Source of the DNA: Nitrospirota bacterium | Lineage (GTDB): Bacteria > Nitrospirota > UBA9217 | Assembly: GCA_963818475.1 (NCBI GenBank) | Contig: CAWFSF010000006.1 | Span: 2,112,001 to 2,176,000 of the forward strand | Reading direction: 5' to 3' | Length of the DNA: 64,000 nucleotides | The notes under the pieces: model-generated | Told to the model about the DNA's origin: nothing | The model's input: only the letters and a program-made list of their open reading frames with translations | Database searches by the model: none | Translations under genes and position numbers: made by a program | In this document: positions 1-53,990 of the stretch, piece by piece | Layout of the letters: each line of letters starts with the position of its first letter | Position numbering within the stretch: position 1 is the first letter of the stretch

Positions 1-1
1 T

Positions 2-1861: not shown

Positions 1862-1939
1862 GGAGCGTTAAAGTGAGAACCAATAGGTGCCGCTAAGACG
1901 CGAAGGCATTTAAATTCATTACTGCTTTGCCCACGTTAG

Positions 1940-1974
1940 CCCTCTCCCCACAGGGGAGAGGGTTGGGTGAGGGG
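1940..1974. repeat. REP-like palindrome CCCTCTCCCC-ACA-GGGGAGAGGG-TTGGGTGAGGGG
   Basis: Perfect 10-bp stem; a near-identical copy lies at 46109-46143. Confidence 0.75.
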
Positions 1975-1998
1975 ATTTTCAAGATGTAACAAAGCTAT

Positions 1999-3405: not shown

Positions 3406-3921
3406 ATCAATAAACCTCCTCTACTCCATGCATGACCGGATTTACTTGAATTTTCATTCACATATTCATAATGCTGACTTTAAGCAAACAAAAATATTAG
3501 TCGTCAAATCATTGTCTCGATGCGCCGGTGCCGTACAGCGCTCCGCTTGCGAGGCATTCGTAATTGAAAGTGCCCAAGTATAGCACCCACTTTATGTTTG
3601 TCAACCTTTAGTATTATTGTTTTTATCAAAACGTTAACTCAAGTGATATAAAAGCCTTGCTATTAGCGGCTTGAGCAGGGGTCGGGGTATTTTCAGGGTA
3701 TATGCAAAAGGATGCCAATAGTTGCAAAATATAGGGTTAAAATGCAGATTTTTCCGGTTTTCTCGCGGTCGGATCCCTTTGACATAGCTCGATGCATGGC
3801 GGTCACTTGATAGAAAGGGGCGCTAATTCAGAGCATACTAAAACTAAGGATGGATGCATCCCAACGATCGTGGGGTAGCGATAGAGGGCTGTAGCTGTAG
3901 GGTGGTTGTACTGAATCCAAT

Positions 3922-3957
3922 AAAAAAGAGGCTACAGCATGTGCTGTAACCTCTTGA
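3922..3957 (-). terminator. Rho-independent terminator downstream of tRNA-fMet
   Basis: Minus strand reads AAGAGGTTACAGCA-CA-TGCTGTAGCCTCTT followed by a T tract. Confidence 0.7.
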
Positions 3958-3963
3958 TTAGTT

Positions 3964-4040
<77 letters not shown>

Positions 4041-4050
4041 ATGAGGTTGC

Positions 4051-4079
4051 ATAGTAAATCACAACCGTCCGAATGTCAA
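4051..4079 (-). promoter_or_regulatory. Sigma70 promoter of tRNA-fMet
   Basis: TTGACA-17 nt-TACTAT, about 10 nt upstream of the tRNA 5' end. Confidence 0.75.
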
Positions 4080-4084
4080 GATAA

Positions 4085-5557
4085 TTATAGGATCTTCGGC
4101 GGTTTTGTATCAAGAAACACGTTCAGTACCGGCGACGGAGCACTTGCATTGCCCGGTTCGTCATAGGCGATCGCGGTAATGCCGTTGTTGCCCTCGGTCA
4201 GCGTCAGCTGCATGGAAAAAGCTCCTTTTTCGTCGGCCTTGACCGTTGTTTTGGTCGCGCTGTTCACATAGACGTCGATCTTTGCACCCGGCTCGGTCGT
4301 GCCGGTCAGCGTCAGCGCCGGGATCCGCGTCACCGGCGGCAGCGCATTCAGGGTTGGCGAAGCCGGGGGGGTGGTCTTCAGCACCACATTGATGGTCGCG
4401 GGCTTTGCCTGGTTGCCCGCCCGGTCCACAGCGGTTGCCGTGATCGTGTTCTTGCCTTCGATCAGGTTCACACTGGACAGGGTGAACACGCCCTTCGAGA
4501 CCTGGACCGGGGTGTTGTTGATCTTGACCATGGCCATGGGATCATTGACCGTGCCGGTGACCGTAATCATCTTCTTGTTCGTCACCATCATCTCTTTCGG
4601 TTCGGTCAGCGTAATGGTGGGCGCGATCGTATCAACCGTGATCTTGACCGAGACCGTGGCCGCGTTGCCTGCCAGGCTCACGGCCTTGACCACGATCACG
4701 TTCGGGCCTTCATCCATCTTCACATTTGCCGTGAAGGTGCCCGAAGCGAGCACGGCCTGCACTTCCTGGCCCGTGCGCGTTGCAACGGTGACCGACGCCA
4801 CGTTTTTGTCCGCCGTACCCGTTACCGTGACCGTGCCGGTGCTCAGCAGGCTGTTCGAAGACGGCGCCGTAATATTGATCACGGGCGGCTTGCTGTCCAG
4901 GACCAGGATGACGCTGTCGCTTCCCGTGTTCCCGAACTCGTCGGTCACGGTGGCTGTTACGGTATTAGTGCCTTCGACCAGGTTTACCCTGGCGCTGAAA
5001 GCTTCTTTTTCAACAGCAGCGACCACGCCGTTCACCACGATCCTTGCCCTGCTGTCATTCACCGTACCGACGATCAGAACAGGCGAGTTGTTCAAGAACT
5101 GGTTTGGTTTGTGCGACGTTATCTTCACGACCGGCGGCAGGGTATGGATCGTGAAAGACCAGAGGGTCGATTCGGTGTTGCCGGCCTTGTCAACGATATC
5201 GAGCTTCACCTTATGGCTTCCGTCAGTCAGGGGCGCTGCCGGCACATAGGTGATCTTGTTCTGCATGATCTGAGCGGCTGCTGAAACGTCCTGGCCGTCA
5301 ACGTACATTTTGCTGTCCGTGGTGCTGACGCCGATGCCGTCATCCATGTATTCCGCAGCGATCGTCGGCTTCGAGTTGTTGATCAAGCCGCCATCACGCG
5401 GAGTCAGGCTCATCTTCGTGTCTGGAGCTGTTTGCACGGCAACAGCCGTTCTCTTTACGGTCGTCTTGCGCAAAGCCTTTTTCTCAGCAGCAACAGCCGT
5501 TCCCGCCTGTGAACAGAACAGAACGGCCATAAGGATCGTCATGCAGCGTAACAACAT
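4085..5557 (-). CDS. Secreted tandem bacterial Ig-like domain protein
   Basis: Signal peptide; about five ~90-aa repeats of the type LxEGxNxITxTAxDxAGN...DTxPP. Confidence 0.85.
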   Translation of the reverse strand: MLLRCMTILMAVLFCSQAGTAVAAEKKALRKTTVKRTAVAVQTAPDTKMSLTPRDGGLINNSKPTIAAEYMDDGIGVSTTDSKMYVDGQDVSAAAQIMQNKITYVPAAPLTDGSHKVKLDIVDKAGNTESTLWSFTIHTLPPVVKITSHKPNQFLNNSPVLIVGTVNDSRARIVVNGVVAAVEKEAFSARVNLVEGTNTVTATVTDEFGNTGSDSVILVLDSKPPVINITAPSSNSLLSTGTVTVTGTADKNVASVTVATRTGQEVQAVLASGTFTANVKMDEGPNVIVVKAVSLAGNAATVSVKITVDTIAPTITLTEPKEMMVTNKKMITVTGTVNDPMAMVKINNTPVQVSKGVFTLSSVNLIEGKNTITATAVDRAGNQAKPATINVVLKTTPPASPTLNALPPVTRIPALTLTGTTEPGAKIDVYVNSATKTTVKADEKGAFSMQLTLTEGNNGITAIAYDEPGNASAPSPVLNVFLDTKPPKIL

Positions 5558-5860: not shown

Positions 5861-6595
5861 TTGAGAACCGCTGTTGCCGCGTTTTTTGCAACTCTGATCG
5901 TTTCCCTGGTGCCCCCGGTTGCCCATGCTGATATTTATCAGTATACCGATGGGAACGGAGTATTGCATTTCACCAACGTTAGTGGCGGCAAGAACCACAA
6001 ACGGGTGAGATCAGAATCCCCGAAGAAGATCCAGCCTGAGACAGCCTTCCTCCCGCAGGAATCAACGCCCTCAAGAAATACGATTTCTTCGGCAAATATG
6101 CCGAGCACCTATCTCGACATCATCCAGTCCGCCTGCAACCGGCACGGTGTTGATCCGGCGCTGGTGCATGCGCTCGTGAAGGTCGAATCGGACTTTAACC
6201 CCTATGCCCTGTCCAGGAAAGGGGCCATGGGCCTCATGCAGCTCATGCCGCAGACGGCCATGGACATGGACGTGCAGAACTCCTTTGATCCGAGCGACAA
6301 CGTCGACGGCGGCGTCAAATATCTCCGCTATCTCATCGACCGGTACGAAGGGAACCTTTCGCTGGCGCTCGCTGCATACAACTCAGGAGAGACCGCAGTC
6401 AAGAAATGGGGGACCATCCCGCCCTTCAAGGAAACACAGAACTATGTACAGCGGGTCCTCGGATTGTATAACGGAAAGAAAAAGCTGCACGTCCCGCGCT
6501 ACACGGTCTACATGGGATACGCCGAGGACGGTTCTCTGCTCGTCTCGGACACTCCGCAGCCCGGCCAAAAAAAGATCTCCCGAAGAGACCTCTGA
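5861..6595 (+). CDS. Lytic transglycosylase (SLT domain) with N-terminal DUF4124-like domain
   Basis: IYQYTDGNGVLHFTN motif; SLT motifs VESDFNP, GAMGLMQLMP, ALAAYNSG, ETQNYV. Confidence 0.9.
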   Translation: MRTAVAAFFATLIVSLVPPVAHADIYQYTDGNGVLHFTNVSGGKNHKRVRSESPKKIQPETAFLPQESTPSRNTISSANMPSTYLDIIQSACNRHGVDPALVHALVKVESDFNPYALSRKGAMGLMQLMPQTAMDMDVQNSFDPSDNVDGGVKYLRYLIDRYEGNLSLALAAYNSGETAVKKWGTIPPFKETQNYVQRVLGLYNGKKKLHVPRYTVYMGYAEDGSLLVSDTPQPGQKKISRRDL

Positions 6596-6598
6596 TCC

Positions 6599-7045
6599 CT
6601 AGATCCAGACCACCTTATCGAAGTCCTGCAATCCTTCCACAATATGGTTCGTCGTGCCCCGATGGCCGACCTTGAGCTTTGACTCAAGGTCATAGTGCTT
6701 GAGGCAGGTGCCGCAGGAGTACATCTCGACGCCCATGGCCTCGATTTCCTTCAACACGCCCGCGGTTTCGTCGTTCACCGTGGTGAGCTTGACGCCTGCA
6801 TTCAGGAAAAAGATCGTGTGCGGAAGCTGCTTCGTCGCCTTCATCGTATCGAAAAACCCTTTTACCAGTTTTTTCCCGAGTTCCTCGTCCTTGCCAAGAG
6901 CATCGGTGCCGATGATGAGCAGCAGATGTTTCTTGTCCCCCGTCTCCGGATTCAGCCTTCCTGCTTCCGCCTTCGTACTACAGCAGTTATTTGACAACTG
7001 TTCCGCACTCCGCGATCCGCATTCGTTTTGCATATTATCCCTCAA
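6599..7045 (-). CDS. yedF: Selenium metabolism protein YedF-like (DsrE fold, no TusA domain)
   Basis: G-DEELGKKLVKGFF, IFFLNAGVKL and SCGTCL motifs; downstream of selD. Confidence 0.8.
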   Translation of the reverse strand: MRDNMQNECGSRSAEQLSNNCCSTKAEAGRLNPETGDKKHLLLIIGTDALGKDEELGKKLVKGFFDTMKATKQLPHTIFFLNAGVKLTTVNDETAGVLKEIEAMGVEMYSCGTCLKHYDLESKLKVGHRGTTNHIVEGLQDFDKVVWI

Positions 7046-7106
7046 TTCCCCTGTTCCGCATCCTCATTCCCGCTGCTTTGTTCACGAATTCCGCATTCCG
7101 CATCCG
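7000..7106. repeat. Imperfect heptamer tandem repeats (TTCCGCA-type)
   Basis: ttccgcactccgcgatccgcattc ... ttccgcattccgcatcc; overlaps the yedF start. Confidence 0.65.
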
Positions 7107-7116
7107 GGAACTATCG

Positions 7117-7899
7117 TTATTTAACAATATCGCTCCAGACCTTGACCGCGGTAGCCAAAATAAGCGCAGCGAGCAGCCATCGTAAGAACTGTGTTCTTGT
7201 CCTCTTCCCCACGATGCTGCCCCATCGTGCAGCGGGAATGGCGCCAAGGACCAGCGGCAGTGCCATCAGAAAAGGCACCTGCGACGTGGCGACCTTCCCG
7301 ATCAACCCAGCCGAGGACGAGAAGAGCCCGATGGCAAGGGTGCTGCCGAGGGCGACCCGCAGGGGGATCTTCAAAACATACAGCATCATCGGTATCAGGA
7401 TGAACGCCCCGCCCTGCCCTACCAGGCCGATGGAGAAGCCGAGCGCGATGCCGATAACCACCGCGGTCGGCTTATGATACACAACCGCATCCTCGGTCAA
7501 ATCGTCCTCTCCATAACTGCGCGGGACGAGCATCATGCCCGCTGCGATCAATGCCAAGGTCCCGAAGACCAGAAGCAGGAGGCCGTCAGGCACCTGCTTT
7601 GACACCAGCGAACCGATAAGCGACGACAGGAACAGCGAAGAACCGAGCGTCAGAACGAGCGATCTGTTCACGAGCGCGTTTTTGTGGTAGAAGAACAGCG
7701 CCGTCAGGGCGGAAAAAAAACCCTGGGCCATCGTGAGGCCGGTGATATCTTTGACGTCGATGCCGCCAAGGCCCAAAAGCGGCGGCACATAGAGCAGGAG
7801 CGGGAACATGACGATCCCGCCGCCGATGCCGAGCAGGCCCGCGAGAAATCCGACGGACAGGCCCACCAGTGCCAGGAACAGATACAGAGTGACGTCCAT
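7117..7899 (-). CDS. TauE/SafE-family (sulfite exporter) transporter
   Basis: GFLAGLLGIGGG and GLVGQGGAFILIP duplicated motifs; ATG lies 1 nt after the selD stop. Confidence 0.9.
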   Translation of the reverse strand: MDVTLYLFLALVGLSVGFLAGLLGIGGGIVMFPLLLYVPPLLGLGGIDVKDITGLTMAQGFFSALTALFFYHKNALVNRSLVLTLGSSLFLSSLIGSLVSKQVPDGLLLLVFGTLALIAAGMMLVPRSYGEDDLTEDAVVYHKPTAVVIGIALGFSIGLVGQGGAFILIPMMLYVLKIPLRVALGSTLAIGLFSSSAGLIGKVATSQVPFLMALPLVLGAIPAARWGSIVGKRTRTQFLRWLLAALILATAVKVWSDIVK

Positions 7900-7900
7900 G

Positions 7901-8948
7901 CTATTGCTCCACAAAGATCCGTTTCGTACCCTGTCCCGCCCCGTCCTGTACATCGCCGATATAAGCTGCCAGGATATTCTCCTTCTGCAGCGCCGCGATA
8001 AGCCGCGCCTTGTTCTCCTGGGACACGAATATCAGGAGGCCGCCCGAGGTCTGAGCATCGTTCATCAGGATCCGGTCAATCGCGGAAACGTCGGCGCTCC
8101 ATTCCACAATGGGATCATAGCTCTTCTGGTTTGCCCGCGTGCCCCCCGGGACCATGCCCAGTCTCCGCGATTGTTATTGCCTCTTCAAAAACAGGGACCT
8201 GACGCGCGTGGAGACGCGCCGTGCGCTTACTCGCCGTCAGCACCTCGTTCAGGTGTCCGATGAGGCCGAAGCCGGTGATATCCGTGGCCGTGCTGACACC
8301 CACCTCGAGCATGATCTCTCCGGCCCGCTTGTTGAGCGTAGCCATGGATTTGGTGAACGCTTCCGCGGTCACGGCACTGCATTTCCCGGCTTTGATCCCG
8401 GTCGAGATCACGCCGGTGCCGATCGGTTTCGTGAGGATCAGGGCGTCGCCTGGTTGCGCTTTTGCATTATCGAGTATTTTATCCGGGTGGACATTCCCCA
8501 TGATGGCATACCCGAACTTCGGTTCCTTGTCCTTGACCGTATGGCCGCCGATGATGAACACGCCGGCCTCGGTCATCTTGTCGATGCCGCCCTGCATGAT
8601 CTTTTTGTTGATCTCGTAAAACTCCGCTCCCGCCGGAAGCGCCGCGATGTTCAGGGCGACCAGCGGCCTGCCGCCCATGGCGTAGACGTCGGAGAGCGAA
8701 TTGGCGGCCGCGATCGCGCCGAACCAGTAGGGATCGTCCACGATCGGGGTGAAGAAATCCGCGGTCAGGACCATGGCGATCTCGTCGGTAATGCGGTAGA
8801 CGCCGGCGTCGTCGGCATTTGAGGCGCCGACCAGCACGTTCGGATCGGTTATCTGTGGCAATTGTCCCAGGACCTGGGACAGTTCAGCAGGGCTGAATTT
8901 TGACGCTCAACCTGCGCAGCTGGAAAGTTGTGTAAGTTTGATTTCCAC
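7901..8948 (-). CDS. selD: Selenide, water dikinase SelD; selenoprotein (Sec at codon 14, TGA 8907-8909); apparent 1-nt frameshift near 8160
   Basis: GTG 8948 gives MEIKLTQLSSCAG-U-ASKFSPAEL, in frame with ORF 8115-8861 (DDAGV, DFFTPIVDDP, AANSLSDVYAMGG, DITGFGL); C-terminal DAQTSGGLL lies in the shifted frame. Confidence 0.95.
8863..8897 (-). promoter_or_regulatory. Candidate SECIS hairpins of selD
   Basis: TTCAGC-CCT-GCTGAA and TGTCCCAG-GTC-CTGGGACA lie just 3' of the UGA. Confidence 0.65.
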
Positions 8949-9092
8949 AGTCCACCACCCCCCGTCATTTCAGTCATGTTCATCTATGATTCCGGTATAC
9001 TTTACGACAGGGGAGGCGAGAGTGTCAATGAGGAAATGACTGATGGGATTTTAACCATCGGTCTCGAGGAGGTACCGCGGAGCGCTGCCGCA

Positions 9093-9743
9093 TCATGCCT
9101 TCCGGATGCCGTCAATGAGCAAATAGGTGTCATGCTTCACATATCGCGTTCCCGTCACGATCAGGTTGGGATTGTTCTGAACATGCGCCAGTGTCTGCCG
9201 GTCGAATCGCGCGCCGTACACTTTTTCAACAAAACGCGCAAAACGGTCCTGCCTTTTTCTCAAAGCAGGATTTTCTGAATACTTCATTTCCAGAAGGCGG
9301 AACCTGCCGCCGGGTTTGAGCACGCGGGCAAACTCCGTGATTGCCTGGTCCTGCAGTTCATCGGGCAGAACGCAGCAGAGGAAGAACGAAACTACCCAGT
9401 CGTAGCGGTCCGAAGGAATGGTCTCCATCCTGCAGGCATCCTCATGGACAAACCGGACCGTGCAGGATGCCTCGTTGCACCGTTTCGAAGCGCGTTTCAG
9501 CATGGCAGGGCTGAAGTCAACAGCGGTCAGGTTGACCCCGGGCTGGTAATGCTTCAAGTTTCGTCCGGTCCCGATCCCCGCTTCCAGCACCTCACCGTCT
9601 ACATCAGCCAAAAGCTCAGGCCGCCATTTCCGGTATTGGAGTTCCCAGGGGTAATCCAGAATATCGTATACCCATGCGGTGATGGCATAGCGTTTCTGAT
9701 TCAGGAGATTCAGCTCGTGGAGATCAAGTTGTTTGAACTTCAT
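9093..9743 (-). CDS. Class I SAM-dependent methyltransferase
   Basis: VLEAGIGTG motif I, DFSPAML, FFLCCV, RVLKPGG; GGAG RBS before ATG 9743. Confidence 0.9.
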   Translation of the reverse strand: MKFKQLDLHELNLLNQKRYAITAWVYDILDYPWELQYRKWRPELLADVDGEVLEAGIGTGRNLKHYQPGVNLTAVDFSPAMLKRASKRCNEASCTVRFVHEDACRMETIPSDRYDWVVSFFLCCVLPDELQDQAITEFARVLKPGGRFRLLEMKYSENPALRKRQDRFARFVEKVYGARFDRQTLAHVQNNPNLIVTGTRYVKHDTYLLIDGIRKA

Positions 9744-9851
9744 GACAGCGCATCTCCTTTCTGTAAAAATACGATCATCCTTATGGGGCTGGGATTTCAA
9801 CTTCTTGTACAGGATCAGACTCTATCCTGCGATGAACATCGCACCCCGGCT

Positions 9852-10274
9852 TTAGAACGTAAGATTCATGTCCGCCGGTATGACCGTATCTTTGTAATAT
9901 TTTGCGGGATCGGCAACCTTCACGCCGTCGATGAGATCATTCTTCTGGATATTGAAGAGCGCCACGTTCAAAGGGCAGGCAAGAACAGTCCCGCCCTCCG
10001 CGATCAGCATGAAGAAAAGGTCTTCTACGGAGGGAAGCTCCATCTCCTCCATTTTTTTCATCACTGCGTCGCCTTCTTCCTTGGGCTGGTCAGGAAGACA
10101 TTTCAGCATCTTCACCTTTTCCTTGTGGACCGCGTTGATTCCGCGCGAGCCGAAAAACATAGTCACCTTCGAGCCTTCCCGCAGCAGGCTCAATGCTGTC
10201 ATAAGGGCGTTGTAGACTTGACAAAGTTCCTCATGGAAACACATCACCGAAACGTTTTTCACGATCTTAGGCAT
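9852..10274 (-). CDS. DsrE2/DrsE-like sulfur-transfer family protein
   Basis: VTMFFGSRG and LACPLNV motifs; MEEMELPSVEDLF segment typical of DsrE2. Confidence 0.8.
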   Translation of the reverse strand: MPKIVKNVSVMCFHEELCQVYNALMTALSLLREGSKVTMFFGSRGINAVHKEKVKMLKCLPDQPKEEGDAVMKKMEEMELPSVEDLFFMLIAEGGTVLACPLNVALFNIQKNDLIDGVKVADPAKYYKDTVIPADMNLTF

Positions 10275-10310
10275 GGCACTCTTCCTCCTTTGGCGAAAAT
10301 TCGCGAACTT

Positions 10311-10898
10311 TTACGCCCATCCATAGGGCGTAACGCTGGAATACGACCTCCAGGTAAAGAGACCTATCACCGCGGTCAGCACGAGTGTGAGCCAGATCGG
10401 AAAGGGGGCCCATACTTGTACCCCCAGCATGGTGGAGAGAAGCACCACGAACAAACAAACCGTGGCAAGGCGTTTCCGCTGAATACGCAGCGGCCCGATC
10501 CGCTTTGCGAGTTCCGGGGTCGCGGGCGCTCCGCCGGCCTGCGCGAAGAGAGCGTCGATTCGGGGTTGCAACGACACATGAACGTATGTCAGCAGGCTGC
10601 CGATCAGAAGAAGGGGAAAAAATTTGATCGCAAGGACGGGTTCGGTAAAAAGAGCCCCCAGGCTCCGGCCGCGCAGCGCTACGAGGATTGCGCCGGAAAT
10701 GAGGGCCGTAGCCTGGAACACGAAACAGGGGATCGTCCGATTCTTGATGATGTTCTCCATATACACATCAACCCGGTCGCCGAGCGGCGGTCCCAGCCTT
10801 CCGCGCTGGTTCACCGCCACAAGCGCATAGAAAGGCCATATCATCAGCATGGCATTGGTTACGTGGATGAACCGAAGGATACCGGTCAATGTCTCCAT
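10311..10898 (-). CDS. Uncharacterised integral membrane protein (about 4-5 TM)
   Basis: Several hydrophobic helices; GGAGG RBS; in operon. Confidence 0.75.
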   Translation of the reverse strand: METLTGILRFIHVTNAMLMIWPFYALVAVNQRGRLGPPLGDRVDVYMENIIKNRTIPCFVFQATALISGAILVALRGRSLGALFTEPVLAIKFFPLLLIGSLLTYVHVSLQPRIDALFAQAGGAPATPELAKRIGPLRIQRKRLATVCLFVVLLSTMLGVQVWAPFPIWLTLVLTAVIGLFTWRSYSSVTPYGWA

Positions 10899-10918
10899 AA
10901 AACCTCCCTGATCAGCAC

Positions 10919-11200
10919 TTAAAACATGCCCACGACTTTATCGCTTTCAACCATCAAGTCCGTCAGGCTGTCGTAATCGATGGTTTTAGCGCGGCCATCC
11001 AGCTCGTCATCCCTGAGGCCCCTGAGTTTTTTGTCATCATCCAGGACATGAATGGCGCCGGGAAAACCCGCGAGCCTCCCCTTCTGGGCGAACAACACGC
11101 CATTCTGAAGCAAAACAAGGTCAGCTGCGCTGTCCCGGGCAAGAGCCACGCCCCGCATGGCGTCGGCAGTGTCCGGCGCGCTTTTGATAAGAACGATCAT
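10919..11200 (-). CDS. DsrH/TusB-family protein
   Basis: LVLLQNGV and VLDDDKKLRGL...IDYDSLTDL motifs; GAGGTG RBS before ATG 11200. Confidence 0.85.
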   Translation of the reverse strand: MIVLIKSAPDTADAMRGVALARDSAADLVLLQNGVLFAQKGRLAGFPGAIHVLDDDKKLRGLRDDELDGRAKTIDYDSLTDLMVESDKVVGMF

Positions 11201-11212
11201 GAAGGCCACCTC

Positions 11213-11566
11213 TCAAAACAAAATTGTCGATTTGGCGCTTTTAATGATACCGGCAATATCTTCGCCCGAGGCCGTTTGCACGCCCTCGACCAGGTCGTCC
11301 CTGGTTATTCGCTGAGACAGCAGAGACGACGCATCGGCATACACGGTAATCCCCATGTCCAAACAGTCCCGCAGTGTCTCTTCAAGGCCGGTGAGGCCGG
11401 TCCCGGCATCGTCCTGTCCTTTTTTCGCGAGCAGAACTCCGCCGTCAACGAGAAGCATATCCACACTCAATTCATTCACCACCGCTCCCAGCGCATGGCG
11501 CACCGCCTCCGCGGCATTCACCGTGCCGTACGGAACGTGCTGAACTATCATCGCGACATCCGCCAT
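11213..11566 (-). CDS. DsrF/TusC-family protein
   Basis: HVPYGTVNAAEAVR and LVDGGV motifs; lies between DsrE and DsrH. Confidence 0.85.
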   Translation of the reverse strand: MADVAMIVQHVPYGTVNAAEAVRHALGAVVNELSVDMLLVDGGVLLAKKGQDDAGTGLTGLEETLRDCLDMGITVYADASSLLSQRITRDDLVEGVQTASGEDIAGIIKSAKSTILF

Positions 11567-11578
11567 GTTCCCTCCGAG

Positions 11579-11941
11579 TCATATTCCCATATTGATCCAG
11601 ACATCCGTTTCCCGCAAGGTCGCGAACAGGACCTTCAGCGAGCCGAGCTGCGCGCCCGGAATGTAATCTTCTTTCGCCGCACGGCGAAAGTTCATGCAGC
11701 CGCCTCAGAGGTGGACCTGCAGCCCCTTGTCGATGAGGCGGGCAAACTCCTGCTCGGCATGCGGCATCCCCTTGGCCTTTTGCTTGGATAAAAAGCAGTA
11801 GAGTCCGTCCGCCGATGCGATAAGGTTCACCCGATGGCCTTTGTTCAAAGCGGATTCCGCGATCCTGATGCTGGAAGCCGCATTTTCAAAGGAATACGGA
11901 GAGCTGGTCAGATAGATCGTGATTGTTTTGGCCATACTCAT
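11579..11941 (-). CDS. DsrE/TusD-family selenoprotein (UGGC motif, TGA 11705-11707)
   Basis: ORF 11705-11941 continues in frame past TGA: VHL-U-GGCMNFRRAAKEDYIPGAQLGSLKVLFATLRETDVWINMGI*. This gives a full 120-aa DsrE with U at the active-site Cys position. Confidence 0.9.
11671..11690 (-). promoter_or_regulatory. Candidate SECIS of the DsrE selenoprotein
   Basis: CTTTCGCC-GTGC-GGCGAAAG hairpin starting 14 nt after the UGA. Confidence 0.7.
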
Positions 11942-11953
11942 TTTTCTCCAGTG

Positions 11954-12739
11954 TCACTGCGTTAAGATCTGATACCACATCTTAAGCCCGGTAACGGCAA
12001 TGATGATTGCAATGGCGATCCGCAAGTGCTTGGTATTTACTTTTTTGCTTACGCCTCCTCCGAACTGGGCGCCCGGCACGGTACCCACGACAAGCGCCAG
12101 CGCAGCGGGCCAGAGAATTTGGCCGGTGACCATCTTGCCGACAGTCCCCGCAAGCGCTCCCAGAAATACGATCCCGAGCGTGCTGCCGATCACGATCCGC
12201 GTCGGGATATTCAAGATATAGATCATGATCGGGATATAGATAAATGCGCCCGGCGCGCCCACCATGCCTCCGAACACGCCGATGACGAGGCTCACGGCCA
12301 TTGCCAATGGCTTATTATATTTGAGTTCGTCTGGCAACATATCCTTCCCCTGTTCGCGCTTGGGGATGAACATGGCCACCGCGGCGATCACCGCCAGAGT
12401 TGCAAAGATGGCGAGCAAAAAGGAGCTTTTCGTGTGCTGTGAGTAAAAAGAGCCCGCAAGATTTCCGATGGCGTTGCAGACGCCCATATAGAGGAGCAGT
12501 GATTTGCTCACAAATTTGCTCTTATTGTGGACGATGACGCCCGTGAGAGAGGCGGACAGGACCTGCACCATGCTGATGGCAGCCACGTGCTTCATGTCGA
12601 ACTGCCCGACGCCAAGAAGCGGCGGCACATAGAGGAGCAGCGGGATCATAAAGATCGCACCTCCCAGGCCTAATAGTCCGGAAAGAAAGCCGCCACCCAG
12701 ACCGAGCGAAACAAGGGTGATCAAGAGGGGGATCTCCAT
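11954..12739 (-). CDS. TauE/SafE-family transporter (second copy)
   Basis: GFLSGLLGLGGAIFMIP and GMVGAPGAFIYIP motifs; ATG overlaps the upstream TAA (TAATG). Confidence 0.9.
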   Translation of the reverse strand: MEIPLLITLVSLGLGGGFLSGLLGLGGAIFMIPLLLYVPPLLGVGQFDMKHVAAISMVQVLSASLTGVIVHNKSKFVSKSLLLYMGVCNAIGNLAGSFYSQHTKSSFLLAIFATLAVIAAVAMFIPKREQGKDMLPDELKYNKPLAMAVSLVIGVFGGMVGAPGAFIYIPIMIYILNIPTRIVIGSTLGIVFLGALAGTVGKMVTGQILWPAALALVVGTVPGAQFGGGVSKKVNTKHLRIAIAIIIAVTGLKMWYQILTQ

Positions 12740-13029
12740 TATGCCTCCGATCCGCTGTTGCTCAGCATCGCCGCTTGTATATCTTCGTAGGTAACGGCAG
12801 CTGTCCCAATCAAAGTGTATGACGGCGCTACGATCCGGCCATTCACCATCACTGATGGACAAGATGGCGGGTCTTTTTCCTGGCTGTATTCCTTCGAGGT
12901 TTTCTTAACAACGACAATTTCCGCGCCGAGTTCCTTCTCCGCCCGACGGGCGGCTTCCATGATGGATAGTCAGCGTTTGCCCATGGGATCATTCATGTAG
13001 AGAGTGATCGTATGCTTTTTCATATACAT
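12739..13029 (-). CDS. Small thioredoxin-fold selenoprotein, NDPxGxxU motif (TsoC-like; TGA 12970-12972)
   Basis: ATG 13029 or 13023 gives MKKHTITLYMNDPMGKR-U-LSIMEAARRAEKELGAEIVVVKK...CPSVMVNG; coupled to the arsR stop; hairpin CCGCCC-GTC-GGGCGG 16 nt after the UGA. Confidence 0.85.
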
Positions 13030-13370
13030 TAACGTCTCCTTTCGCCTGGGTATGCTCCTTTTTTCGTCACCGGGCAGCAGGCCGGTGCGGGGACATCTTC
13101 TGTATATTCTTTTTTAAGCAGATTGAGCAGATCAGGGATGAGGGGTTCTTTCAGGAAGTAGCATTTAAGCCTGCCGTCGACGAAGAAATCAACGATCCCG
13201 TTCGTCCGTAGCAGCGTCAGGTGCTGGGATACGTTCGGCTGGCTGATCTCAAGGGTCTCCTCGAAATCGCTCACGCACTTCACGCCCTGTGTAAGATCTT
13301 CAAGGATCCTGATCCGTATGGGGTGGGCGATGATCTTCAGGATTTCAAAGCGCTTCTCTATGGGGACCAT
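13029..13370 (-). CDS. ArsR/SmtB-family transcriptional repressor
   Basis: LKIIAHPIRIRIL, KCVSD and SQPNVSQHL HTH motifs; C-terminal ACC. Confidence 0.92.
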   Translation of the reverse strand: MVPIEKRFEILKIIAHPIRIRILEDLTQGVKCVSDFEETLEISQPNVSQHLTLLRTNGIVDFFVDGRLKCYFLKEPLIPDLLNLLKKEYTEDVPAPACCPVTKKGAYPGERRR

Positions 13371-13402
13371 GGGTATTTCTCCTCAGGGCGACCGGTACGC
13401 TT

Positions 13403-13654
13403 TCATGTATCGATCAGGCCTGGACCATCCAATCGTATATGAATGATGCTTGCATTTTCCTGATCCACGGCTTTAAGGACACTGCACCACTTATTTTTCA
13501 GGAAGCATTCTACCATCGCTTTCGATGCGATGCTGTTATCTATTCTTACCAGGAGCGTATCTCCCGGGGACAACTTACTCAACTCTGCCATCAACCTCTT
13601 TTTGTCTGGAATGGAACTGTCAAGCATGATATCCAGAGGCTCAGTCAATTTCAT
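13403..13654 (-). CDS. TusA/SirA-fold small protein lacking the CPxP motif
   Basis: LSKLSPGDTLLVRIDN pattern and 83-aa size match TusA. Confidence 0.6.
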   Translation of the reverse strand: MKLTEPLDIMLDSSIPDKKRLMAELSKLSPGDTLLVRIDNSIASKAMVECFLKNKWCSVLKAVDQENASIIHIRLDGPGLIDT

Positions 13655-13686
13655 AAATAACTATATCCCCCTACTCTGCAATTAAT

Positions 13687-13724
13687 TATATGCAAACATT
13701 ATTATGTTTTAATATAAATGTCAA
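13687..13724 (-). promoter_or_regulatory. Promoter with ArsR-type inverted-repeat operator
   Basis: Minus-strand TTGACA at about 13719-13724; palindrome TATAT..AAACAT-4nt-ATGTTT..ATATA overlaps the -10 region. Confidence 0.65.
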
Positions 13725-13881
13725 GCACATTTTTACCGGCCCCGATTAGCCGCCCCGTGCTGAGCATGCGCACACATCCGCAAGCAACGACGAGAAAAGC
13801 GATATGAAGTTTGACCTGGACCAACTGAGTGTGTACACTAGATGCATCTCAGGTTTATTCAGAGCTGAACAGGAGGACGTG

Positions 13882-15337
13882 ATGCTCCGATCATGTTTTA
13901 TCGGCATTGACCAGGGAAGCAGTTCTACCAAGGCGCTTGCCCTGAGCCTTGACGGCCAGGTCCTGTACCAGACGAAGAAGGTCCTTCCGCCTGCGTATCG
14001 CGACGGCCAGCGCGTTGAGCATGACCCTCTTGCCATCCTCGATTCGGTCCGGAAGGTGCTGGACGAAACGATCCAGTACCTTCGCTCCGCCGGCGTTACG
14101 ATCAGCGGCATCGGGCTTGCCTGCCAGCGTTCGTCCTGCCTGGCCTGGGAAGAGCAGACGGGAAAGCCCCTGTCACCCGTCTTAAGCTGGCGCGATACGC
14201 GCGGAGCAGAGTACGTGCAGGGTCTCGGCACGAACGCACCGCGCATATTCGATCTCACCGGCCTGCCGCTTACACCCTATTACGCAGCCTCCAAATTTCG
14301 CTGGCTTGAAAGACCATATGCAGGAAACCCGCGGTCCCGGTGTTGTCTTCGGCACCCTCAGCAGCTTTCTCTGCCAGCGCCTCACGAATGCGGACAAGGC
14401 ATTCATCGACCATACGAACGCGGCCCGGACGCAGCTCATGAACATCCATTCCTGCGCCTGGGATGATGAACTACTGAAGCTCTTCGGACTTGCGGATATC
14501 CGGCTCCCTGCTATCACGCCGACACTGCAAAGTTTCGGCACTGTCCAGGCTGCAGCGGAAAAGATCCCCCTGCTCGCCTGCATCGGCGACCAGCAGGCGG
14601 CCATGGCAGGCCTTGGCATTCTCGAGAAGAACGACGGAGGCATTAACTACGGAACGGGCGGCTTTCTGATGGTGAACACCGGCAGCAGCCTCGTGCCCGC
14701 CCCGGGACTGATGGCGTCGATCCATTACTCAACGGACCAAAACCGGCACTATCTGGTCGAGGGGAGCGTCAATGCCGTGGGCGACAGCCTTGAATGGCTC
14801 AGGGAACAATTGCAGGTTTTTAAGGATTACGCTGAACTGGACGACCATTGCTGGCAGGCGGCAACTGATGTCGTTGCCTTCATCGGCTTGAACGGGACCG
14901 GGTCGCCGCACTGGGAAAGGGACATTTCGAGCTCGATCCATGGCCTGACCGCAGAAAGCAGGCCGGGCGACATCGTTCGGAGCGCTGTCGAGAGCATCGC
15001 CTTCTTCATGAAAGACATCGCTGCAGCAGTCGGGAAGGCAGGGCTCGAGCCAACATCCTTTTCAGTTTCGGGAGGCCTGGCATCGCTCAGCTACCTTGTT
15101 CAGGTCCAGGCCGACATCCTGGGCAAGGACCTGCAGGTAAGCGCTGAGCAGGAGGTATCGGCATTGGGAGCAGCGTTGCTTGCCGGTCTGTCTCTGGGGG
15201 TTTTGTCTTCAGCGGACATTAAAAGGATCGTGCCGCAGGGTGAGGTCGCTCAGGCACGTCAAAATGCCGGTGCGGAAAAACGGTATCGTCGCTGGAAAGA
15301 GCTCCATCGGATGACGAAGCTGCTCGACGAGATGTAA
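13882..15337 (+). CDS. glpK: FGGY-family carbohydrate kinase (glycerol kinase-like); frameshift near 14305
   Basis: GIDQGSSSTK, DHTNAARTQL, GDQQAA, YGTGGF, VEGSV and EVSALGAALLAG motifs across two frames. Confidence 0.7.
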
Positions 15338-17318: not shown

Positions 17319-17993
17319 TTACATCAGTTCATTAAAGTCCATGACCGCGGGGAACTCAGTGGACGTGCCGGGAGGGAGCTTTGAGTTGCCGAGTGCCTTG
17401 TAGACAACATACTTGATCCCGAAGGCCTTTGCGGTTTTCAGCACAGCAAGCGTATCATCAACGAACAAGGTGTGCTCCCGGTGAAACCCTATTTGCTGTT
17501 CGGCCCGCTGCCAGAAATCAGTCTTCTCTTTCGGGAACCCTATCGCATCTGACGTGATGGATCCGGTCAGGTACTTTCCCAGATCCGTTTTCCTGAGCTT
17601 CAGATCGAGGACCTTGTAGTGCGCGTTCGTGGCAATGAACGTCCTCTTTTCCCGCTGCTTCATCAGCTTGAGAAAGCTCTCCACATGAGGATGCACCTCG
17701 ATAATATGGCGGATCTGTTCCTTGAGCGCCAGGATATCAAGATGCAGTTCCCTTGACCAGAAATCGATATCGGTCCAGTTCAGGGTCTCTTCGTGCGATT
17801 TATACTTTGCCAGAAGCTCTTCTTTTGCCCTGCCGAACGTGATGTTATGTTTGTCCGCGTACTTTTCGGGAACAAGATGCTCCCAGAAGTAATCGTCGAA
17901 ATACTTGTCGAGCAGCGTTCCGTCCATGTCGAGCAGCACGCAATCGATGTCTCCGGTGGAGAGCGCCTGTTTGATCTCGTTGATCGTGGTCAT
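17319..17993 (-). CDS. HAD-superfamily hydrolase (GMP/IMP nucleotidase YrfG-like)
   Basis: LDMDGTLLD...FDDYFW, TNAH and FVDD motifs. Confidence 0.85.
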   Translation of the reverse strand: MTTINEIKQALSTGDIDCVLLDMDGTLLDKYFDDYFWEHLVPEKYADKHNITFGRAKEELLAKYKSHEETLNWTDIDFWSRELHLDILALKEQIRHIIEVHPHVESFLKLMKQREKRTFIATNAHYKVLDLKLRKTDLGKYLTGSITSDAIGFPKEKTDFWQRAEQQIGFHREHTLFVDDTLAVLKTAKAFGIKYVVYKALGNSKLPPGTSTEFPAVMDFNELM

Positions 17994-19099
17994 GGCCGGA
18001 TATACCCCTCGACCATCAAGTCCTGCCCGACCCACTGCGACGTGACCCGGTGCAGCCTGATCGCCTTGCTGAGCCTGGCCGGCGACTTCCCGCCGATGGA
18101 ACACAGGGAATCTGCACCCGTCATCAGCAGGGGGGCTGAGAACACCACGACCTTGTCGACAATGCCCGACCTCAAGGCTGAAGCATTCACCGTTGAACCA
18201 CCCTCGATCAGGACCGAGGTGACGCCGAAGCTGCCGAGCATGCGCATAAGATCATTTCAGGTCCACCTGTCCGTTCTTTTCTTTCACGATCAGTATTTCT
18301 GCGCCTGCATCCAGCAGTTTATCGAGCCTGTCCTTGGGCATGCTGTCGAGCGTGGCAATACAGGTTTTTGCGGCCGAATGTTGCGTCAGGACCTTTGCAA
18401 TCAACGGGACCCTCAGTTTCGAGTCAACGACGACACGCAGCGGGTCGCGGCCATGAGGGACCCTTGTGGTGAGCGACGGGTCGTCCTTCAGAACGGTGTT
18501 GATGCCCACCAGGATCGCATCATGCTGGTCCCGCAGCCGGTGCCCTTCCAGACGGGCCTCTTCTCCGGTGATCCATTTCGATTCGCCGGTATGCCGTCGC
18601 GATCCTGCCGTCCAGGGTCTGAGCGATCTTGAGCGTTACAAAGGGCATGCCCGTGGTCACGTGTTTGATAAATGCCTCATTCAGCTTTTTCGCATCAGCT
18701 TCGAGAACACCCGTCTGCACCTCGATCCCGGCCTTGCGCAGTGCCTTGATGCCGCCGCCGGATACGTGCGGATTCGGGATCGATCATCGCCACCACGACC
18801 CGCTTAACGCCGCTCTGCACGACCAGCGGTGTACAGGGCGGCGTCCGCTTGTTCGTGTGCGAACAGGGCTCAAGCGTCACGTACAGCGTAGCCCCTTTAG
18901 CTGCTTTGCCGGCCTTCGCAAGCGCAATGGCCTCGGCATGGGGCTCGCCGGCCTTCCGGTGATAGCCGCGGCTGACGACCTTCCCGTTCTTGACCACGAC
19001 GGCGCCCACCATGGGGTTCGGGCTCGTCCTGCCCCTGGCCTTTTCGGCAAGGCGAAGCGCCATGCGCATGTATTTTTCGTCTAGAGGTTGTTTGGTCAT
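17990..19099 (-). CDS. ribD: Bifunctional riboflavin biosynthesis deaminase/reductase; several frameshifts
   Basis: [32 protein letters not shown] and VLIEGG motifs spread across four ORFs. Confidence 0.9.
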
Positions 19100-19102: not shown

Positions 19103-19492
19103 TTATTTCTTCCGGGGAACGGTATGTTTTTTCAACCATGCAATGGCTTCACCAGTCGCCAGTTTCCCAACAGCCATGTCCAAAGCAAACCGTTCGAATG
19201 TTTTCTGCGGTGCTACCAACACCAAACCATTTATCTGAAGGAACAACCCCGTTGACGTAACAGCAGTCCTCTTGTTCCCATCCAGAAAAGGATGATTCCT
19301 CGCCAATGATTCCATCAGAGCGGCAGCTTTCGAAAAAACATCCGGATAGAGTTCATCTCCGCCGAAGGTTGCCTTCGGTCGCGCTGCCGCGGATTGCAGG
19401 AGGCCGACATCCCGAACGCCATGAGCGCCACCGGTCTCATCGACGATCCTCGCATGGATGAAGAGAATCTGTTCTTCGGTCAGGTATTTCAC
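19103..19492 (-). CDS. doc: Doc (death-on-curing) family Fic toxin
   Basis: HPFLDGNKRTA signature. Confidence 0.92.
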   Translation of the reverse strand: MKYLTEEQILFIHARIVDETGGAHGVRDVGLLQSAAARPKATFGGDELYPDVFSKAAALMESLARNHPFLDGNKRTAVTSTGLFLQINGLVLVAPQKTFERFALDMAVGKLATGEAIAWLKKHTVPRKK

Positions 19493-19740
19493 TTTTTCGC
19501 AAGTTCCTTGAGCGCGGGACGATACCGTTCAATGAAATCATTTACCTGGGCTACAAACTCACGGTCCACGCTCTTGGGATATTTCTTCTTACGCACCGGT
19601 TCTATGACGATGCGGTCATGGACCTCATCAAGAGTCACATCAACCTCGGCGCCTACGGCCAGATCAAGTTTGCTGAGGTAGTCGGCAGGAATTGACACTC
19701 CCCTGCTATTCCCGACGGAGAAGACTTTTCTATGCATCAA
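19489..19740 (-). CDS. AbrB/MazE-type antitoxin
   Basis: VGNSRGVSIP AbrB motif; C-terminal YRPALKELAK; overlaps the toxin start. Confidence 0.9.
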   Translation of the reverse strand: MMHRKVFSVGNSRGVSIPADYLSKLDLAVGAEVDVTLDEVHDRIVIEPVRKKKYPKSVDREFVAQVNDFIERYRPALKELAKK

Positions 19741-19870: not shown

Positions 19871-22556
19871 TTACTTGGTCCCCGAACCGCCGATGCCTTT
19901 TTCCTTGAGCTTGGCATGTGCAGCCGCAAGCCGGGCGATCGGCACCCGGTAGGGGGAGCAGCTTACGTAGTTGAGCCCGCTCCGGTAGCAGAACTCCACG
20001 CTTGCCGGGTCGCCGCCGTGCTCGCCGCAGATGCCGACCTTGAGGTTCGGCCTGGTGCCGCGGCCTTTGGCCACGCCGATCTTCACGAGCTGGCCCACGC
20101 CCTCCTGGTCCAGGGTCTGGAAGGGGTCCTTCTCCAGGATGCCGTTCTCGGTGTAGTAGTTGATGAACTTGCCCGCGTCGTCGCGGCTGAAGCCGAAGGT
20201 GGTCTGCGTCAGGTCGTTCGTGCCGAAGGAGAAGAACTCCGCCTCTTTGGCGATCTCGTCCGCGATCATGGCTGCGCGCGGCAGTTCGATCATGGTCCCG
20301 ACAAGATAGTTTATCTTCACGCCTTTTTTCTTCATGACCTCTTCAGCCGTTGCCTTGATGAGCTCCTTCTGGTTCTGCAGCTCCTTTTTGATGCCGACGA
20401 GCGGCACCATGATCTCGGGAACCACCTTTTTGCCCTTCTTCGCGAGCTCGCAGGCGGCCTCGATGATGGCCCGGGTCTGCATGCGCGTGATCTCGGGATA
20501 GACGATGCCGAGCCTGCAGCCGCGGTGGCCGAGCATGGGGTTCAGCTCATGCAGCTCCTCAACACGATGGAGAAGCTTCTCCTTCTTCGTGATGGACGCC
20601 TTGGGCGCCTTCTTCGCATGCATCACGGCTACCTCGCACATCAGTTCCTCGCGTTTGGGCAGGAATTCGTGGAGCGGCGGGTCGAGAAGACGGATCGTGA
20701 CCGGGAAGCCGGCCATGGTCTCGAAGAGGCCCTTGAAGTCGGAACGCTGCATGGGGAGGAGCTTTGCCAGCGCCTTCTCCCGGTCCTCGATATTGTCGGC
20801 CAGGATCATCTGCTGCACGATGGGCAGCCGGTCCGCGGCGAAGAACATGTGCTCCGTGCGGCAGAGCCCGATGCCTTCGGCGCCGAACTTCATGGCCATC
20901 ATGGCATCGCGCGGAATGTCGGCGTTGGCCCGGACGCCCATGGTGCGGATCTCATCGGCCCATTTCATGAGCGTTCCGAAATCGCCGCTCACTTCCGGCT
21001 CCATGGTCGGCACTTTGCCGAGGATGACGCGGCCCGTGCCGCCGTCGAGGGTGATGTGGTCGCCCAGTTTCACCGTGACCTTGCCGACGGTGAACTTTTC
21101 CGCTTTCAGGTCGACCCGGATCGATTCGCAGCCGGCCACGCAGGGCTTGCCCATGCCGCGGGCAACGACGGCAGCGTGAGAGGTCATGCCGCCGCGCGCC
21201 GTCAGGATGCCCTGTGCCGCATCCATGCCGTGAATATCGTCAGGCGTGGTCTCGGGCCGGACGAGGATGACCTTGCCGTTCTTTGCAAGCCTGACCGCTT
21301 CATCGGCGGTGAAAACCACCTTGCCCGATGCGGCGCCGGGCGATGCCGGAAGGCCCTTGGCAATGACCTGGATCTTCGCCTTGGGATCGATGATGGGATG
21401 GAGCAGCTGATCCAGCGAGGCCGGCTCAACGCGAAGCACCGCTTCCTCCCGGGAGATAAGCCGCTCCCCTACCATGTCCACCGCGATCTTGACCGCGGCG
21501 TGGGCCGTGCGCTTGCCCGTGCGGGTCTGGAGCATGTAGAGCGTGCCGTCCTGCACCGTGAACTCGAAATCCTGCACATCGCGGTAATGCTTCTCGAGCT
21601 TGGTCGTGATCTCGCGGAGCTGCTTGTACACCTGCGGCATTTCCTTGGCCAGCTCGGAGATCGGGTGCGGCGTGCGGATGCCTGCCACGACGTCCTCACC
21701 CTGGGCGTTCGTCAGGTACTCTCCGTAGAATTCCTTGGCGCCGGTCGAAGGATCGCGGGTGAAGCCCACGCCGGTGGCCGAGGTATCGCCCATGTTGCCG
21801 AAGACCATGGCCTGGACGTTCACGGCGGTCCCGAGATTGCCGGGAATGTCGTTCAGCCTGCGGTAGGTGATGGCGCGGGGGTTGTTCCAGGAACCGAAGA
21901 CCGCATCGCGCGCCATGGTGAGCTGCTCAAAAGGGTCCTGCGGAAAGGGCCGCTTCGTTATCTGTTTTACCTTGACCTTGAACTTGTCGACGAGCCCCTT
22001 CAGGTCCTCGGCCGTGAGATCGATATCGAGGTTTACCTTCCGTCTTTTTCTTCACCTCGTGGATGATGTGCTCGAACACGTCCTTTTCGATGCCCATGAC
22101 CACGTTGCCGAACATCTGGATGAACCGGCGATAGGCGTCCCAGGCAAAGCGCTCGTTGTCGGACATGCGGATCAGGCCGTCGATGGTCTGGTCGTTCAAG
22201 CCCAGGTTCAAAACCGTGTCCATCATGCCGGGCATGGAGAACTTGGAGCCCGAACGGACCGAGACGAGCAGCGGACGGCTCGCGTCGCCGAACTTGAACC
22301 TGCCGCCCAGCGCGTCCTCGACCTTCTTCATGTACACCCGCATATCGGAGTCAAGACCTTCCGGCACGCGTTTGCCGAGATCATAGAACAGGTTGCAGAC
22401 CGCGGTCGTGATGGTGAACCCTGGAGGGACCGGAACGCCCGCATTCGTCATCTCGGCCAGGCCCGCTCCCTTGCCTCCGAGCAGGTCCTTCATCGCCCCC
22501 GTGCCGTCAGCCTTGCCGCTGCCGAAAAAATAAATGTATTTCTCCCCCGTAGCCAT
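19871..22556 (-). CDS. ppdK: Pyruvate, phosphate dikinase; frameshifts near 21930-22045
   Basis: LLGGKGAGLAEM, SMPGMMDT, GGMTSHAAVVARG, GTNDLTQ and GICGEHGG motifs. Confidence 0.97.
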
Positions 22557-29649: not shown

Positions 29650-30136
29650 TTATCTTGAAACAAGCTGTGGTACGTCGTTCAGCAGCGACATCTGCGAGTA
29701 TTTTTCCCTGATCCTGCCGCTGACGAGCCCGAAGAACTCTTCCGCATCCTTGATCGCCTGGCCGGCCTCGTACTTCGATATCACCCTGCTCGACTCTTCC
29801 ATAAAGTTCTGATATTTACGACGCATGCGGTCGAACTTGTTGATCAGGCTTTTGTACTGCTCTCCCAGAATAACACCCACCGCCGTTACGATGGTCTTCT
29901 GGATATCCCTGCCCCGGACGCCTTTCGGCCGGTACCCCTCGGAAAGTATCAGTGCCCGTGCAGACCGGGCCATCGCGAGATAGGCCGCTGCAAAGGCCCA
30001 TTCCTCATCTTTTTCCTGGAGCAGTCTGCTGGTTGCCAGATCGCGCTCGGCCCTCGTTATCAGGCCGATGACCTCGACGGTCTCGGTGACCCGCTCCTCC
30101 AGCATCCCCATGTCCTGCAAGTTCTTTATAGTCCAT
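29650..30136 (-). CDS. HEPN-domain protein with degenerate RNase motif; probable 1-nt error near start
   Basis: WAFAAAY..MARSARALILSEGYRP and FDRMRRK HEPN pattern; ATG 30136 overlaps the end of the MNT gene. Confidence 0.8.
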
Positions 30137-30692: not shown

Positions 30693-30712
30693 TTCACTCA
30701 CCTCATGTGGAC

Positions 30713-53989: not shown

Positions 53990-53990
53990 G

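Follow-up and report, generated by a model that had tools for sequence, protein, structure and literature searches.

A DsrE-like protein with predicted selenocysteine at the carrier position in a divergent DsrEFH trio of Nitrospirota

In the DsrEFH complex of Allochromatium vinosum, Cys78 of DsrE has been described as the sulfur-binding residue and Cys20 of DsrH as essential (PMC3397948). For the divergent DsrEFH type II, subtype 1 was reported to be 57% Nitrospirota (PMC13293266). Most Thermodesulfovibrionia with reductive dsrAB were reported to "possess dsrFH, but no dsrE" (PMC11033732). DsrE-like selenoproteins with a UxxC motif (PF02635) appear in the tables of PMC1088965, PMC1794560, PMC9312934, and PMC13188914, with WP_014524487.1 as an example. 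The sequence-only reading of the DNA studied here had likewise named such proteins as a known family. SaoD, also a DsrE-like protein, has according to its description never been seen with selenocysteine (Sec) (10.1101/2022.07.06.499078).

In a literature search that was thin on subscription papers and had Haft and Tolstoy 2025 outside its range, no paper was found on a Sec-containing DsrE together with DsrF, DsrH, or sqr. One Sulfobacillus genome paper, in its accessible part, names DsrEFH and selenocysteine once each. The word "selenocysteine" has no occurrence in the searched text and supplement of the type II DsrEFH paper (PMC13293266), and DsrE, TusD, and Nitrospir have none in the main text of the deep-Sep paper (PMC12013277). 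Here, a DsrEFH with predicted Sec is described, a real, lineage-wide variant made from known parts and apparently undescribed. Within the window, i.e., the whole stretch of 64,000 nucleotides analyzed, it comprises the following features:

11941-11579, minus strand: dsrE-like selenoprotein gene, 120 aa plus stop, TGA read as U, motif U79-G-G-C82
11707-11705, minus strand: in-frame TGA, predicted Sec79, LUGGC context
11690-11671, minus strand: bSECIS-like hairpin, 8-bp stem, GUGC loop starting 22 nt past the UGA
11566-11213, minus strand: dsrF/tusC-like gene, 117 aa, PF02635, carrier position without Cys
11200-10919, minus strand: dsrH/tusB-like gene, 93 aa, without Cys, PF04077 above cut-off

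The translation of 11941-11579 reads MSMAKT...GLQVHL-U-GGCMNFRR...WINMGI, with a single internal TGA. Under code 11, the gene is reduced to a 78-aa ORF (11941-11705), which at first reading was held to halt exactly where DsrE and TusD carry their persulfide Cys. The family profile agreed with this, placing U79 opposite Cys78 of DsrE (2HY5_A) and the matching Cys of TusD (2D1P_A), with residues counted by eye. Read-through gave the claimed 120-aa protein, whose stop codon lies 12 nt upstream of the dsrF ATG; because homologs begin at the second Met, translation may actually start at 11935 and give 118 aa. The read-through protein matched Pfam DsrE (PF02635) over residues 6-113 with 53.3 bits (cut-off 22.7, E 3.8e-14), versus 33.6 bits for the 78-aa form. 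It contains a second Cys, Cys82, which is missing in DsrE and TusD, and thereby has both the PF02635 domain and the UxxC motif that characterize the DsrE-like UxxC selenoproteins.

To collect relatives, GTDB genomes were scanned with patterns placed upstream of the site, yielding 52 loci from 47 genomes at 58-87% identity; the patterns were derived from the Sec clade, so the set consists of Sec-clade relatives, with distant Cys forms outside it. By lineage label, 51 of the 52 loci were Nitrospirota and one was Betaproteobacteria. TGA followed by GGC was present in all 51 loci that reached the site (46 genomes), giving UGGC in 51/51. The tail after TGA measured 41 aa in 48 loci and 40 aa in 2; in the remaining locus the contig ends within it. 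Codon statistics were computed on 47 of the 52 rows, after 3 that were too short, 1 with an indel, and 1 near-duplicate had been dropped. In these nonredundant rows, amino-acid identity was 0.79 after the UGA versus 0.82 before it, and variation in the tail fell mainly on third codon positions (0.15/0.08/0.45).

Sequencing error needed to be excluded at this site, because the assembly is evidently error-prone. Many genes of the window are split across frames, namely, glpK (13804-15337), ribD (17990-19099), ppdK (19871-22556), glyS (22668-24753), GH57 (26451-28656), fadD (32627-34364), fadJ (35829-37992), and coxA (54076-55576), which points to an indel-prone assembly. However, an error at 11705-11707 or a downstream segment without conservation, either of which would have undermined the first reading, does not agree with a TGA recurring in 46 genomes and a tail that changes mainly at third positions. 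Sequencing error and pseudogene were rejected on these grounds, and the probability that the TGA is a true stop, a lesion, or an error is close to negligible. Genome-wide reassignment of UGA was likewise rejected, since TGA serves as the stop codon of cluster genes, dsrE and dsrF among them. Judged from sequence, 11941-11579 almost certainly encodes a genuine selenoprotein with Sec at the DsrE active-site position, as had been claimed.

Among 61 database homologs, 60 terminate directly before the site, the exception being a full-length form with Cys. The tail alone was matched by two 38-aa proteins that had been predicted separately (82% and 65%). At the Sec column, 128 distant representatives had Cys (97), a gap (24), or another residue (7); CxxC was found in 81 of them, and CGxC in 118 of the best 120 Cys relatives. 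The source names of the Cys sister forms were Chloroflexota, Nitrospirota, Bacillota, Spirochaetota, Aminicenantales, and archaea. For five distant short forms (P0080, P0083, P0090, P0092, and P0158), a TGA is suggested by where the proteins end. A tree of 111 rows over 77 columns, built only by a quick method, placed the 15 forms ending at the site together with 6 Cys forms in one group of 21 rows, with 3 changes and a support of 93 that was not starred.

Of the named carrier genomes, six were looked up, and all six belong to Thermodesulfovibrionia or UBA9217. In the Atlas, DsrE clusters of 75-80 aa, few of whose members have taxa, were also found with Pseudomonadota or Actinomycetota as the commonest phylum, hinting that the Sec form possibly extends beyond Nitrospirota. 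A plasmid search returned 4 distant, uninformative matches at ~31%. Four genomes contain 2-3 Sec-dsrE loci each (L002/L013/L020, L003/L011, L018/L021, and L049/L051), and the last pair may be a single copy over two contigs. The locus labeled Betaproteobacteria (L004, JBLMWN010000227.1) has a Nitrospirota-like operon, attributable to mis-binning or transfer.

The 8-bp hairpin with a GUGC loop noticed after the UGA was found again at 11690-11671, with the sequence CUUUCGCC-GUGC-GGCGAAAG. Bacterial SECIS (bSECIS) elements are described as having a loop of 3-9 nt, a stem of 4-16 bp, G within the first two loop positions, a spacing of 16-37 nt, and an MFE of <= -7.5 (PMC13188914). With a loop of 4, a stem of 8, G first, a spacing of 22 nt, and -11.3 kcal/mol, the dsrE hairpin agrees with all four bSECIS rules. 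By chance level, 80 of the 2287 TGA triplets of the window (3.5%) pass a bSECIS-like screen; the UGAs of selD and of a tsoC-like gene are among the 80, both with GUC loops. Identity at fourfold sites (47 rows) reached 0.89 in the hairpin codons, whereas upstream codons gave 0.38 and the remainder of the tail 0.42; the first Arg codon was CGC in 47/47 rows. Pairing was kept in 91.8% of cells on 35 rows, versus 46-60% when the hairpin was slid. Covariation on these 35 of the 52 rows was not significant (1 two-sided change; 37/500 shuffles as high). The hairpin is thus supported by invariance of synonymous sites, not by covariation. An Rfam scan of 6000-14500 gave 2 chance-level matches, none at the hairpin.

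The predicted model of Sec-DsrE (mean pLDDT 92) matched DsrE 2HY5_A with a Z of 16.8 (rmsd 1.9 A, 114 aligned), TusD 2D1P_A with a Z of 16.6 (rmsd 2.1 A, 115 aligned), and YchN 1JX7_A with a Z of 16.8. All three subunits scored under the TusBCD/DsrEFH equivalog cut-offs: Sec-DsrE at 15.9 bits on TIGR03012 (cut-off 89.25), the DsrF-like protein at 33.9 on TIGR03010 (94.15), and the DsrH-like protein at 35.4 on TIGR03011 (49.2). No NCBIfam model was found to cover the Sec-DsrE subunit. On TIGR03012, read-through forms reached 15-18 bits and truncated forms 16-18, with F and H at 33-47 on their own models. The claim of a complete trio with cognate dsrF and dsrH stood in the relatives as well. The dsrF gene followed Sec-dsrE in 49/49 loci with room, and dsrH was found by tblastn in 46/47, the 47th having a divergent DsrH-like ORF. 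The Cys20 of DsrH is absent: Cys is lacking altogether in most of the 47 DsrH ORFs listed for the loci, and the others do not share any Cys within their first 20 residues.

A model of the complex, built with F, H, and only the 78-aa part of E, scored 0.33, compared with 0.12 for the best control; contact agreement between runs was at least 82% and partner pLDDT at least 68. Among solved pairs, 116 of 157 reached that mark, as did 2 of 215 mismatched pairs, and scores of <=0.60 at that mark were seen in only 18 of the 157 solved pairs and in both mismatches. The score may also be due to likeness to the solved 2HY5 and 2D1P. The model, of a kind suggested at first reading, weakly supports a putative complex of E, F, and H.

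The minus-strand order in the window is tusA-like, arsR, tsoC-like (Sec), tauE, dsrE (Sec), dsrF, dsrH, DUF2269-like, dsrE2, methyltransferase, selD (Sec), tauE, and yedF-like. The genes on either side of the trio are as follows:

13654-13403, minus strand: TusA-like ORF, weak (PF01206 20.9 bits, under the cut-off of 28.6), in 2/52 loci
13370-13029, minus strand: ArsR/SmtB regulator, NF033788 above cut-off, conserved C-terminal CCP motif
13029-12739, minus strand: TsoC-like second selenoprotein, NDPMGKRU then CPS, TGA at 12972-12970, NF045708 42.5 bits (cut-off 45)
12739-11954, minus strand: TauE/SafE-family exporter, PF01925 E 6e-44
10898-10311, minus strand: membrane protein, DUF2269-like by Atlas feature matches of 0.95 and 0.92 (lead only), in 1/52 loci
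10274-9852, minus strand: DsrE2-like, PF13686, in 23/52 loci
9800-9093, minus strand: SAM-dependent methyltransferase, in 2/52 loci, not a conserved part of the operon
8948-7901, minus strand: selD with Sec (SSCAGU), TGA at 8909-8907, GUC-loop hairpin, TIGR00476 above cut-off
7899-7117, minus strand: second TauE/SafE-family exporter, PF01925
7045-6599, minus strand: YedF-like selenium-metabolism protein (CGTC), TIGR03527 134.9 bits (cut-off 110), in 0/52 loci

After the TGA of the tsoC-like gene comes a hairpin with a GUC loop, spaced by 22 nt as in dsrE. This gene is cut short in code-11 annotation, and its UGA and hairpin recur in most relatives carrying it. The selD frame is interrupted near 8150 at a G run and is continuous in the closest relative, L001; the frameshift is probably an assembly error. 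Among cluster genes, no match to TsoA or TsoB was obtained, and TsoC and TsoR scored 42.5/45 and 35.2/115, respectively. Consistent with the first reading, dsrAB, dsrC, and mnmA were not found in the 64-kb window, to which the statement applies; neither these nor selA or selB occurred among its 202 ORFs of >=80 aa (Pfam/NCBIfam; in the larger scans, best five families per protein). Within the same 64 kb, selC was not seen, sqr was absent, and ARAGORN found one tRNA-Met. A promoter and terminator scan gave counts near shuffle level (5 versus 4.4 and 10 versus 7.6).

Elsewhere in the window, a second selenium-linked island (42114-51111, plus strand) contains a LysR scoring above cut-off for the selenium-metabolism family, a DVU_1556-like methyltransferase, and double-cubane reductases (367 aa, and two-domain, 871 aa) with their activase. 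Genes for a caa3-type cytochrome c oxidase cluster, SCO and heme o synthase included, lie at 52711-58828 (plus strand); the lineage has been described as largely anaerobic. On the minus strand, 1-5557 encodes large secreted proteins that have Ig domains or are rich in glycine, with tRNA-Met (3964-4040) between them. Toxin-antitoxin-like pairs (Fic/Doc with MazE-like; HEPN with nucleotidyltransferase) are located at 19103-19740 and 29650-30809 (minus strand), and an ISNCY transposase at 40682-41962.

In relatives, the consensus order was arsR - (tsoC-like) - (tauE) - dsrE(U) - dsrF - dsrH - sqr - (dsrE2, MMPL, LolA-like, DUF1302-like). A match to sqr, partial in some cases, was found in 44/47 loci with room. 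Its product matched the solved sulfide-quinone reductase 3HYV (E 5e-98), presumably the Aquifex type I enzyme, with Cys aligned to 124, 156, and 347 (counted by eye). Among the 52 loci, neighbors were ArsR in 46, MMPL in 26, tsoC-like in 25, dsrE2 in 23, LolA-like in 20, tauE in 19, DUF1302-like in 19, selD in 8, yeeE-like in 4, tusA-like in 2, and yedF in 0, all lower bounds because some contigs are short. The window and L001 are atypical, as both are without sqr; a DUF2269-like gene, common only to these two, occupies its place. Genes for dsrC, tusE, dsrAB, mnmA, and iscS were not found among the recurrent neighbors of related loci, and no persulfide dioxygenase (CstB) was found among these neighbors or in the window. 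In ~20 loci, an export module of MMPL, LolA-like, and DUF1302-like genes lies 3' of sqr (L043 13069-15375; L019 15527-16327; L047 18614-19879), and its cargo is possibly a sulfur product. A fragment that fits the model of the double selenoprotein MbdU and has TGA at its end occurs in 3 loci (L052 18917-19660).

What the sequence establishes is a conserved UGA with a SECIS-like hairpin, together with the fold of DsrE and the order of the operon. The function we favor, and consider somewhat better than even, is that of a divergent DsrEFH/TusBCD-like trio in which E would be the catalytic subunit and sulfane sulfur would be carried on selenium. ArsR would sense sulfide or persulfide, releasing the operon, and SQR would convert sulfide to polysulfide. 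The Sec79 selenolate would attack polysulfide and retain sulfur in the form Se-S(n)H, and DsrF and DsrH would provide the scaffold. Selenolate is a better nucleophile than thiolate. Sulfur would then pass to DsrE2, a rhodanese, or TusA, and from there either to export or to DsrC/DsrAB encoded elsewhere, and the site could be reset by Cys82 and the TsoC-like selenoprotein. In the window, selD would supply selenium to the cluster's own selenoproteins. The layout of tauE, sulfurtransferase, sqr, and putative sensor parallels that of the cst system of Staphylococcus aureus (PMC5480029). Sulfur is a likelier cargo than selenium, because sqr is present in 44/47 loci and selD lies near in only 8/52. 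Several observations count against this explanation: the window has selD and a YedF-like gene and no sqr; the motif is of the CxxC type, unlike the single-Cys CVAA of DsrE and TusD; dsrC, tusE, and dsrAB were not recognized among the recurrent neighbors, with tusA (2/52) and yeeE (4/52) rare; DsrH is without the Cys20 described as essential in A. vinosum; covariation in the hairpin is not significant; selA, selB, and selC were not seen in the window; and part of the sqr matches are incomplete.

Alternatively, the protein could be a redox catalyst, since UxxC includes the second Cys that DsrE and TusD do not have. U79 and C82 would cycle through a selenenylsulfide, the trio would reduce or trim polysulfides and persulfides (or peroxides) beside SQR, and the TsoC-like protein would re-reduce it. 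This fits the invariance of UGGC in the 51 loci, the prevalence of CxxC in distant representatives and CGxC in close Cys forms, and the top sequence match among solved structures, the CxxC-bearing YchN. PMC1088965 places the DsrE-like UXXC family among redox proteins. The TsoC-like gene was found in 25 of the 52 loci; however, it was not seen in the other 27, some on short contigs. In addition, E, F, and H are known together elsewhere from complexes for sulfur transfer, and the carrier DsrE3C is reported also to have an extra non-carrier Cys (10.1101/2023.12.18.572138). Redox catalysis is regarded as unlikely.

Selenium itself could also be the cargo, with a perselenide carrier delivering selenide to SelD or removing excess selenium and TauE serving as transporter. 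This stays a rival because the window has selD and yedF-like genes and no sqr. Among the rivals, selenium carriage is the best fit to the window itself, with two TauE and three Sec genes in the cluster and a selenium-metabolism-family LysR at 42816-43709. A selenium-supply step requiring Sec is conceivable, as SelD here itself contains Sec. Near sqr-less relatives, selD was found in 3/3, versus 5/32 of those with sqr and 5 kb of room (Fisher p 0.009; post hoc, kinship ignored). However, across the loci selD and YedF are rare next to sqr (8/52 and 0/52 versus 44 loci), polA separates selD from the trio in L050, and a nearby selD is also explained by the operon's own demand for Sec. Selenium carriage is regarded as distinctly unlikely. 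Of the perselenide-carrying complex proposed in the sequence-only reading, Sec at the carrier position with cognate dsrF and dsrH stood, and selenium as cargo was less supported. A TusBCD-like relay for tRNA thiolation or another cofactor is very improbable, since the fold, the subunit order, and the TusD or TusC names given to many homologs by JGI are outweighed by the lack of mnmA, tusE, and iscS among recurrent neighbors, the TIGR03012 score far under cut-off, and the 2-3 copies beside sqr in several genomes.

DsrEFH serves as a marker separating sulfur oxidizers from sulfate reducers, and the Sec form is invisible to marker surveys because E is cut at the UGA in databases and standard models score it poorly. 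Sec-DsrE is a concrete candidate for what PMC11033732 described as "dsrFH, but no dsrE", and the operon may account for that pattern by divergence as much as by UGA. UGA alone as the cause is unsupported; divergence suffices, because read-through proteins score as low on TIGR03012 as truncated ones. According to the same source, dsrAB is pervasive in both classes carrying the operon. A bolder extension, which we regard as doubtful, is that in basal Nitrospirota (Thermodesulfovibrionia and UBA9217) a third, selenium-dependent DsrEFH could couple SQR directly to DsrC and reductive-type DsrAB; this might be the reported missing dsrE and might hide selenium-dependent sulfide oxidation or sulfur disproportionation in presumed sulfate reducers. 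Characterized DsrE/TusD carriers use Cys, and natural Sec and Cys sister forms make selenium's contribution to sulfur trafficking directly testable, along with any limit that the supply of selenium may set on sulfide handling by Nitrospirota of groundwater and sediment.

Compared with known systems, Sec-DsrE shares its Pfam family and UxxC motif with the listed DsrE-like selenoproteins, which are predictions only; these comprise two Sargasso sequences and one from Desulfovibrio vulgaris, and the consulted parts of the lists name no DsrF, DsrH, sqr, or Nitrospirota. In the Tso (three-selenoprotein) operon (Haft and Tolstoy 2025, as cited in PMC13188914), a TsoC-like selenoprotein stands beside ArsR, as in the window, where TsoC falls just under its cut-off, TsoR far under, and TsoA and TsoB are missing. 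YchN of Escherichia coli (1JX7), which among solved structures gave the closest sequence match (profile E 1.8e-14), has CxxC at the site and is one gene product, whereas the window trio consists of three different subunits and has Sec. The cst system of S. aureus (tauE, cstR, cstA, cstB, and sqr) brings together SQR, TauE, a sulfurtransferase, and a sensor-regulator; the relatives' operon has putative counterparts (sqr in 44/47 loci, tauE in 19/52, and ArsR in 46/52), with sqr absent in the window, and differs in having ArsR instead of CstR, a Sec-containing EFH carrier, and no persulfide dioxygenase among recurrent neighbors. With DsrEFH type I (A. vinosum, 2HY5) and E. coli TusBCD (2D1P), the trio has the E-F-H order, the fold, and the carrier position in common. 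It differs from them in Sec for Cys, the extra Cys82, 16-19% identity, subunits under equivalog cut-offs, no Cys20 in DsrH, and no dsr or mnmA neighbors (window and recurrent neighbors). DsrEFH type II is, like the trio, a divergent EFH of sulfate-reducer lineages that standard models miss. According to PMC13293266, however, Cys is found for type II in 99.3% of 985 genomes, and type II lies beside yeeE/tusA, synteny seen here only as a tusA-like gene in the window and 2/52 loci and a yeeE-like gene in 4/52, whereas the trio described here has predicted Sec and, in relatives, lies beside sqr.
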